Source: Escherichia coli (lineage in GTDB: Bacteria > Pseudomonadota > Gammaproteobacteria > Enterobacterales > Enterobacteriaceae). Taken from it: a DNA stretch of 1,060 nt. Below the pieces are notes generated by a model that saw nothing but the letters and a program-made list of their open reading frames with translations, had not been told where the DNA came from and searched no databases. Position 1 is the first letter of the stretch. Every line of letters begins with the position of its first letter. Shown one piece after another: positions 1 through 402 of the stretch. The stretch lies in NCBI RefSeq assembly GCF_003334385.1, contig NZ_QOWN01000129.1; one strand, written 5' to 3'. The position numbers were made by a program, and so were the translations under genes.

Positions 1-402
1 CTCCCCGCCATTGACGATCAAAAATCCTTTCCCCGGGGCACGTATGCCACACACCAGGGCGGACTCTGGCGGGCGTATGAAAAAACGCACGGGATGCGGG
101 GATGGGAATGCCTGGTTGACGGGGTGGCGGATATTGACGTCAGCATGACGGGTGAACGGTTGTTCTCTGTGGTGGTCCGGCAGAGCAGTGGCCAGCGTAC
201 GGAAAAAACATTTTCCCTGCCGGTGATGCTCTACCGCGGTGTGTTCAGAGCCGGTGAAACCTACCACCCCGGCGATACGGTGACGTGGGGGGGCTCGCTG
301 TGGCACTGCAACAGTATGACCGAAGATAAACCCGGAGAAGCTCATTCATCAGCCTGGACCCTGGCTGCAAAACGTGGGCGGGATGCAGGAGGCGGAAAAT
401 GA
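1..402 (+). CDS. Phage structural-module protein of unknown function, 5'-partial (start lies upstream of the window); C-terminal region has a tandem W/G-rich motif resembling a small carbohydrate-binding (CBM5/12-like) domain
   Basis: Frame 1 is open from nt 1 through the TGA at 400-402 (hand-translated, no in-frame stop in 1..93), so the ATG at 94 in the ORF track is probably internal. Stop overlaps the next gene's start (ATGA, 399-402). Same strand and codon style as the two recognisable phage genes downstream. Product is unassigned; the motif resemblance is from memory only. Confidence 0.65.
   Translation, partial: LPAIDDQKSFPRGTYATHQGGLWRAYEKTHGMRGWECLVDGVADIDVSMTGERLFSVVVRQSSGQRTEKTFSLPVMLYRGVFRAGETYHPGDTVTWGGSLWHCNSMTEDKPGEAHSSAWTLAAKRGRDAGGGK
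387..392 (+). promoter_or_regulatory. Shine-Dalgarno (AGGAGG) for the connector gene, lying inside the 3' end of the upstream CDS
   Basis: Perfect AGGAGG with a 6-nt spacer to ATG 399; the start then overlaps the upstream TGA, a typical translational-coupling arrangement. Confidence 0.7.

Follow-up and report, generated by a model that had tools for sequence, protein, structure and literature searches.

The overlapping stop and start codons of trpE-trpD and trpB-trpA in Escherichia coli are classical examples of translational coupling, in which the cell requires the two gene products in the same quantity. In siphophages of the HK97/SPP1 type, the portal protein, a gp6-like adaptor and a gp16-like head-closure protein form stacked 12-mer rings, with portal and adaptor as adjacent rings of the connector that are each expected in 12 copies. 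This study examined a stop/start overlap between genes of this second kind in a 1,060-nt stretch of E. coli DNA (contig NZ_QOWN01000129.1 of assembly GCF_003334385.1; hereafter the window, at its full length), which is the head-tail joining module of a prophage resembling phages 2851 and BP-4795. The overlap joins the 3' end of a long gene, here called portal-X because it encodes a portal protein fused to a second protein, X, to the gene for the gp6-like head-tail connector or adaptor. Whereas the trp overlaps are of the TGATG type (a distance of -1) and belong to a biosynthetic operon, this junction is of the ATGA type (-4) and belongs to a phage morphogenesis operon. The protein families and their order are the same as in the HK97/SPP1 connector (PF04860, then PF05135/TIGR01560, then PF05521/TIGR01563), providing a rationale for one-to-one expression. 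The difference is the extra protein X encoded between the portal and adaptor genes, with its helical stretches, repeats and CBM5/12-like C-terminal domain; in E. coli it is fused to the portal. HK97 and SPP1 are not known to have an X-like protein. The comparisons described below indicate that translation of the adaptor is probably coupled, in part, to that of portal-X by termination-reinitiation.

The -4 (ATGA) configuration is the commonest one for unidirectional gene pairs in E. coli, and distances from -8 to +6 account for 24% of such pairs (Huber et al. 2023, PMC10666635); short distances are 4.5-fold enriched among genes that code for heteromeric-complex subunits. When E. coli pairs with a -4 distance were tested, coupling was seen in four of five (strict in three, about 60% in the fourth), and removal of the Shine-Dalgarno (SD) sequence cut reinitiation by 60-100% in four of five pairs (Huber et al. 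2019, PMC6728339). Local structure was proposed to block de novo initiation at the strictly coupled pairs, and its absence to account for the uncoupled pair bioBF (Huber et al. 2019, PMC6728339). Widening the distance to an engineered +2 gap lowered reinitiation by 5, 20 and 70% in three E. coli pairs, most of it being retained in two (Huber et al.). The junction in the window resembles hyfH-hyfI, astD-astB, ydbH-ynbE and menD-menH (PMC6728339, PMC10666635) in having an ATGA overlap, an SD sequence inside the upstream coding sequence, and co-directional genes of one operon whose products are parts of one complex. For those four E. coli pairs coupling has been measured, whereas for portal-X and the connector we infer it. 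Additionally, a stable structure of the initiation region is predicted at the strictly coupled E. coli pairs, whereas none that is significant or conserved is found here; in this respect the junction is closer to bioB-bioF, which likewise combines a -4 overlap with a start that no extended double-stranded region surrounds. The SD sequence of bioF, however, is very weak and the gene is translated independently (PMC6728339), whereas that of the connector gene is strong, favouring both reinitiation and de novo starts.

Within the window, frame 1 ends GAT GCA GGA GGC GGA AAA TGA, and the connector reading frame (ATG ACG GCA) begins one base ahead of that TGA. The connector start codon (399-401) and the portal-X stop codon (400-402), both on the plus strand, have T400 and G401 in common, so that the 4-nt ATGA occupies 399-402. 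The ATG is the first possible start past the preceding in-frame stop, and its choice is in agreement with the aligned N-termini of homologues and with the NCBI Prokaryotic Genome Annotation Pipeline (PGAP). The AGGAGG of the connector gene (387-392, plus strand) is written within the portal-X codons GCA GGA GGC and is separated from the ATG by the 6-nt spacer CGGAAA (393-398), which contains a polymorphic site at 394. A further TGA of the portal-X frame, at 412-414, follows the real stop after three sense codons (403-411) and acts as its back-up. The initial annotation had described the ATG/TGA overlap and the AGGAGG as the classic arrangement for coupling; direct reading of the sequence and the listing of open reading frames (ORFs) support both its positions and that description, as this is the textbook -4 overlap with an SD sequence inside the upstream gene. 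Both the stop/start spacing, a 4-nt overlap, and the placement of AGGAGG in the upstream gene with a 6-nt spacer are those of coupled pairs. As a composite motif, AGGAGG-N6-ATGA has a single occurrence in the window (387-402, plus strand) and is absent from all of 200 dinucleotide-preserving shuffles. The same overlap is annotated by RefSeq/PGAP in a 99.2%-identical E. coli chromosome (locus L001), with the portal gene at 5655-8402 and the connector at 8399-8725. A shared transcript is predicted for the two genes, which overlap without intergenic DNA in a co-directional late operon; a scan of the window for promoters and terminators returned no plus-strand site and, on the minus strand, chance-level sites only.

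The case for coupling is supported by a comparison with nine other lineages. These were Salmonella FSL SP-016, Kosakonia and seven lineages from metagenomes. A short overlap with the connector gene was present in all nine, spanning 4 nt (ATGA or GTGA) in eight and 1 nt (TGATG) in the metagenomic lineage L280. The lineages with a 4-nt overlap include Salmonella phage FSL SP-016, a Salmonella-like metagenomic contig and Kosakonia cowanii, with connector identities of 71%, 67% and 54%, respectively, two metagenomic phages whose connectors are 51% and 50% identical, and three contigs (L278, L281 and L282) that were reached via the upstream protein. A purine run resembling an SD sequence lies about 6-10 nt upstream in nine of nine, spelled GGGAGG, GGGAGA, GGGGAG, GGTGAG or AGGGGG. 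The phase of the overlap is the same in all lineages, although they differ in start codon, in SD spelling and in the C-terminal residues encoded. When aligned, the upstream proteins agree fully as far as ...KRGRD; beyond it they part (AGGGK, GRDKT, AK, GRDKQ) at the very place where the SD sequence and spacer are encoded, and this tail is also the sole low-confidence part of an AlphaFold model with an otherwise high predicted local distance difference test score (pLDDT 94). Most simply read, the upstream gene's last few codons are there for the ribosome-binding site of its downstream neighbour and not for the protein. Searches for loci with the connector, using either the single protein or a 13-sequence alignment, returned only E. 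coli loci of 98-100% identity among the best 80 in each case, and a tblastn search of phage records yielded Salmonella FSL SP-016 as the single diverged record.

Variation among close relatives was assessed in 107 exact-pattern matches from IMG/VR, for which the pattern demanded GGAGG at the SD position. The overlap allele GGCGGAAAATGA (G394) was found in 92 of the 107, and GGCTGAAAATGA (G394T) in the other 15; the latter substitution creates a TGA at 394-396, leaving a 2-nt gap and an upstream protein without its last two residues (G, K). The RefSeq record of phage 2851 (L002) carries G394T, its portal gene ending at 8396 and its adaptor starting at 8399, and feature lists suggest that vB_EcoS_phi330 and Stx2a_WGPS6 also carry the T394 allele. 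Because these relatives, including phage 2851, have a 2-nt gap, the literal overlap is dispensable in nature. The natural +2 allele corresponds to one of the distances engineered by Huber et al. and is therefore compatible with continued, perhaps weakened, coupling; it also offers a ready variant pair with which the contribution of an exact overlap to coupling could be gauged in a phage operon. The SD sequence reads AGGAGG in 92/107 and TGGAGG (A387T) in another 15/107, with the GGAGG core in 107/107 as the pattern required, and one locus beyond that pattern has AGGAGA. Two points of the initial annotation are qualified by these counts. The comparison with homologous prophages that it had proposed as a check showed the overlap to be kept in the nine other lineages, but 15 of the 107 close relatives are non-overlapping, which agrees in part with what the annotation had listed as counter-evidence, their connector start being unchanged; and its 'perfect AGGAGG' is present in the window, but TGGAGG takes its place in 15 relatives.

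As proposed here, a ribosome terminating at the TGA at 400-402 would still cover the AGGAGG at 387-392, pairing between the SD and anti-SD sequences would retain it, or its 30S subunit, on the message, and re-initiation could then take place at the ATG (399-401), which begins one base ahead of the stop. A sizeable part of the adaptor would in this way be made in the wake of portal-X. As the SD sequence is strong, fresh ribosomes probably also start there, and the coupling is likely to be partial rather than strict. Equal stoichiometry along the portal, X and adaptor genes is additionally supported by the ATGA overlap between separate portal and X genes in relatives and by in-frame fusions of the two, both described below.

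Several observations weigh against coupling. The overlap is absent in 14% of close relatives (15/107). Pairing of the connector SD sequence with the 16S rRNA 3' end (-10.3 kcal/mol) is equal in energy to that at the capsid and major-tail genes, two stand-alone genes of this operon that must initiate de novo and are separated by 63 and 66 nt from the gene before them. Opening the ribosome-binding site (-18 to +12) takes 12.1 kcal/mol, which is mid-range for the operon (5.6-16.8), and the region 340-460 folds no more stably than its shuffles (z = -0.66, with 48 of 200 shuffles at least as stable). The probability that the SD region is unpaired ranges from 0.23 to 0.78 across the lineages, which share no RNA structure that would occlude it.

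These points are what would be expected if the overlap reflected genome compaction only, with 30S subunits binding de novo at the AGGAGG for essentially all connector translation and no regulatory role for the ATGA phase. An SD sequence equal in strength to those of stand-alone, highly expressed genes, a near-optimal 6-nt spacing to an ATG start, the want of a significant or conserved inhibitory structure and the occurrence of natural +2 alleles all agree with this explanation, and E. coli bioBF sets the precedent of a -4 pair without any coupling (PMC6728339). Compaction is harder to reconcile with the -4/-1 phase, which was kept in nine diverged lineages despite switches between ATG and GTG and changes in SD spelling, whereas gaps of 9-66 nt elsewhere in the operon indicate that compaction alone does not force an overlap; the coupling of four of the five tested E. 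coli pairs argues in the same direction. Compaction as the sole explanation is therefore considered rather unlikely, while retaining some weight. A second alternative is that upstream ribosomes melt an imperfect hairpin (about 352-389) that pairs the first bases of the SD sequence, upon which new 30S subunits bind. The minimum free energy (MFE) structure does pair CAGG (386-389) with an upstream CCUG, and bases of the SD region are unpaired with a mean probability of just 0.28 in L001, which represents the E. coli lineage, but the stability of the fold relative to shuffles and the wide spread of SD accessibility among lineages, where the hairpin is not conserved, make helix melting improbable. 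Strict coupling through a conserved hairpin was rejected, as the fold does not exceed shuffles, the opening energy is unremarkable and nothing is conserved. Partial coupling by termination-reinitiation is the more probable reading, and it should be placed in proportion: the junction is correct but ordinary, being the default, already known and most frequent co-directional kind in E. coli and its phages, and with the overlap already annotated in more than 1000 E. coli genomes it is of little importance as a finding. It is of practical use as support for annotation, in that the connector start is fixed at 399 and the upstream frame is coding up to 402.

The more interesting by-product of the analysis is the portal-X gene. 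Its last 133 codons and TGA occupy 1-402 on the plus strand and run past the left end of the window, frame 1 being open from base 1; the complete gene, annotated by PGAP as a coding sequence at L001:5655-8402, encodes 915 amino acids (aa). The upstream ORF matches PHROG 16748, 1289 and 2271 with E-values of 1e-85 to 1e-93. The Pfam domain PF04860 (Phage_portal; E 1.8e-80) spans aa 54-382 alone of the 915-aa protein, and the part encoded in the window (aa 783-915) lies outside it, so that this stretch shows no portal domain of its own. The earlier claim that the upstream ORF is a genuine structural gene is nevertheless upheld, since it is the C-terminal part of a portal-containing protein.

With one exception, all non-E. 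coli relatives examined have the portal (444-457 aa) and X (289-492 aa) as separate genes, which in Salmonella, Kosakonia and the metagenomic relatives overlap by 4 (ATGA), 1 or 8 nt. In these relatives the portal C-terminus reads ...KAM(I/L)RG(F/L)LTK* and the X N-terminus MNERELSLI..., whereas the E. coli protein reads ...KAMFRGDTEKMTERELSII... In E. coli, one extra base ahead of the old ATGA has put the TGA out of frame and fused the two proteins, with the fusion point at about L001:7000-7020. A second, independent fusion of 1237 aa was found in a soil phage (L278:3001-6714), which also has an ATGA overlap with its own connector gene. A search of the literature on BP-4795 and phage 2851 yielded no paper on the portal/connector junction or on the portal fusion. 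The annotated start of the portal gene differs by record: the ATG chosen by PGAP (L001:5655) overlaps the preceding small ORF by 55 nt, and the RefSeq record of phage 2851 (L002:5817) uses a GTG 162 nt downstream that lacks an SD sequence (duplex +1.2 kcal/mol). The upstream ATG is favoured because relatives begin MWNPFRR...

In protein X, the N-terminus is predicted to be helical, repeats occur in variable number, and the C-terminal domain of about 130 aa, which is the part in the window, is strongly conserved. The repeats form a tandem array outside the window (L001:7233-7936) of 4.3 copies of a 162-bp (54-aa) unit at 90% identity, and their number varies among lineages. The C-terminal domain was found in 5489 cluster representatives. 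Its resemblance to CBM5/12 (PF02839) is not significant (independent E-value 0.026, 15 bits, 23 residues), a search of X against PDB sequences gave nothing meaningful (E >= 0.33), and a search against NCBIfam returned no family. PHROG 1289 is the X family yet is labelled 'portal protein', a name that it probably owes to the E. coli fusion. The CBM5/12-like and widespread X is always encoded between the portal and connector genes. As read here, the family combines a coiled N-terminus, repeats of about 27 or 54 aa and a tandem CBM5/12-like C-terminal domain, in thousands of cluster representatives. Its conserved position and the coupling would suggest a structural role at the portal vertex. A tentative extension, for which the probability is appreciable but short of even, is that the portal, X and adaptor genes form a conserved chain, linked at every step by an overlap of 1-8 nt or by in-frame fusion, and that X may be an unrecognised stoichiometric component (about 12 copies) of the portal vertex or neck in many HK97-like siphophages.

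The connector gene itself (399-725, plus strand) encodes a gp6-like head-tail connector or adaptor, Ad1, of 108 aa, which is identified by a match to PHROG 40 (E 1.3e-30), by TIGR01560 ('head-tail connector protein'), where its 46.8 bits pass the family cut-off of 24, and by PF05135 on its homologues. Its position directly ahead of the head-closure (PF05521) gene, in L001 and in relatives, fits the family. The start at 399 is secure because 13 homologues, with identities down to 48%, begin at the same aligned residue. An alternative start was sought and rejected, since none lies upstream in frame and the next in-frame ATG, at codon 24, would lose the conserved N-terminus. Minus-strand ORFs, among them those at 245-481 (78 aa) and 493-834 (113 aa), were likewise dismissed as chance, as they lie opposite the well-supported portal-X and connector genes and have no support, and an Rfam scan of the window at E <= 1 gave zero matches.

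At 98-99% identity the window matches more than 90 phage records, including Stx1a-, Stx2a- and Stx2c-converting phages, phage 2851 and BP-4795, as well as prophages in 1245 of 5426 complete E. coli genomes. In L001, the PGAP gene order starts with the terminase small and large subunits, a 645-aa protein and a small ORF, and continues with the 915-aa 'phage portal protein', the connector, the head-closure gene (8735-9085), an HK97-gp10-like gene, the tail completion gene gp17 and the major tail protein. The 645-aa protein is annotated as the major capsid protein, and its homologues in relatives carry Peptidase_S78 and Phage_capsid. Among the 17 co-directional junctions of this tightly packed operon, five are at -4 (terS/terL, portal/Ad1, Hc1/gp10-like, gp10-like/gp17 and K/I), with one more at -8 and one at -1.

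Downstream of the connector lies the gene for the head-closure protein Hc1, which is SPP1 gp16-like (735-1060, plus strand; PGAP coding sequence L001:8735-9085) and runs past the right end of the window; it matches PHROG 25 (E 1.3e-27) and TIGR01563 (23.7 bits against a cut-off of 20.6). Its ribosome-binding site, GAGGAGG at 724-730 on the plus strand, overlaps the connector TGA (723-725) and forms a duplex of -12.8 kcal/mol. The junction between the connector and Hc1 (723-737) has a 9-nt gap ahead of the ATG at 735, which is the other common type in E. coli and belongs to the '+9 to +12' class described in PMC10666635. In one metagenomic relative (L281:1037-1690), the gene following X encodes a 217-aa protein with matches to both PF05135 and PF24163 (HCP), suggesting that it is a putative fusion of adaptor and head-closure proteins.
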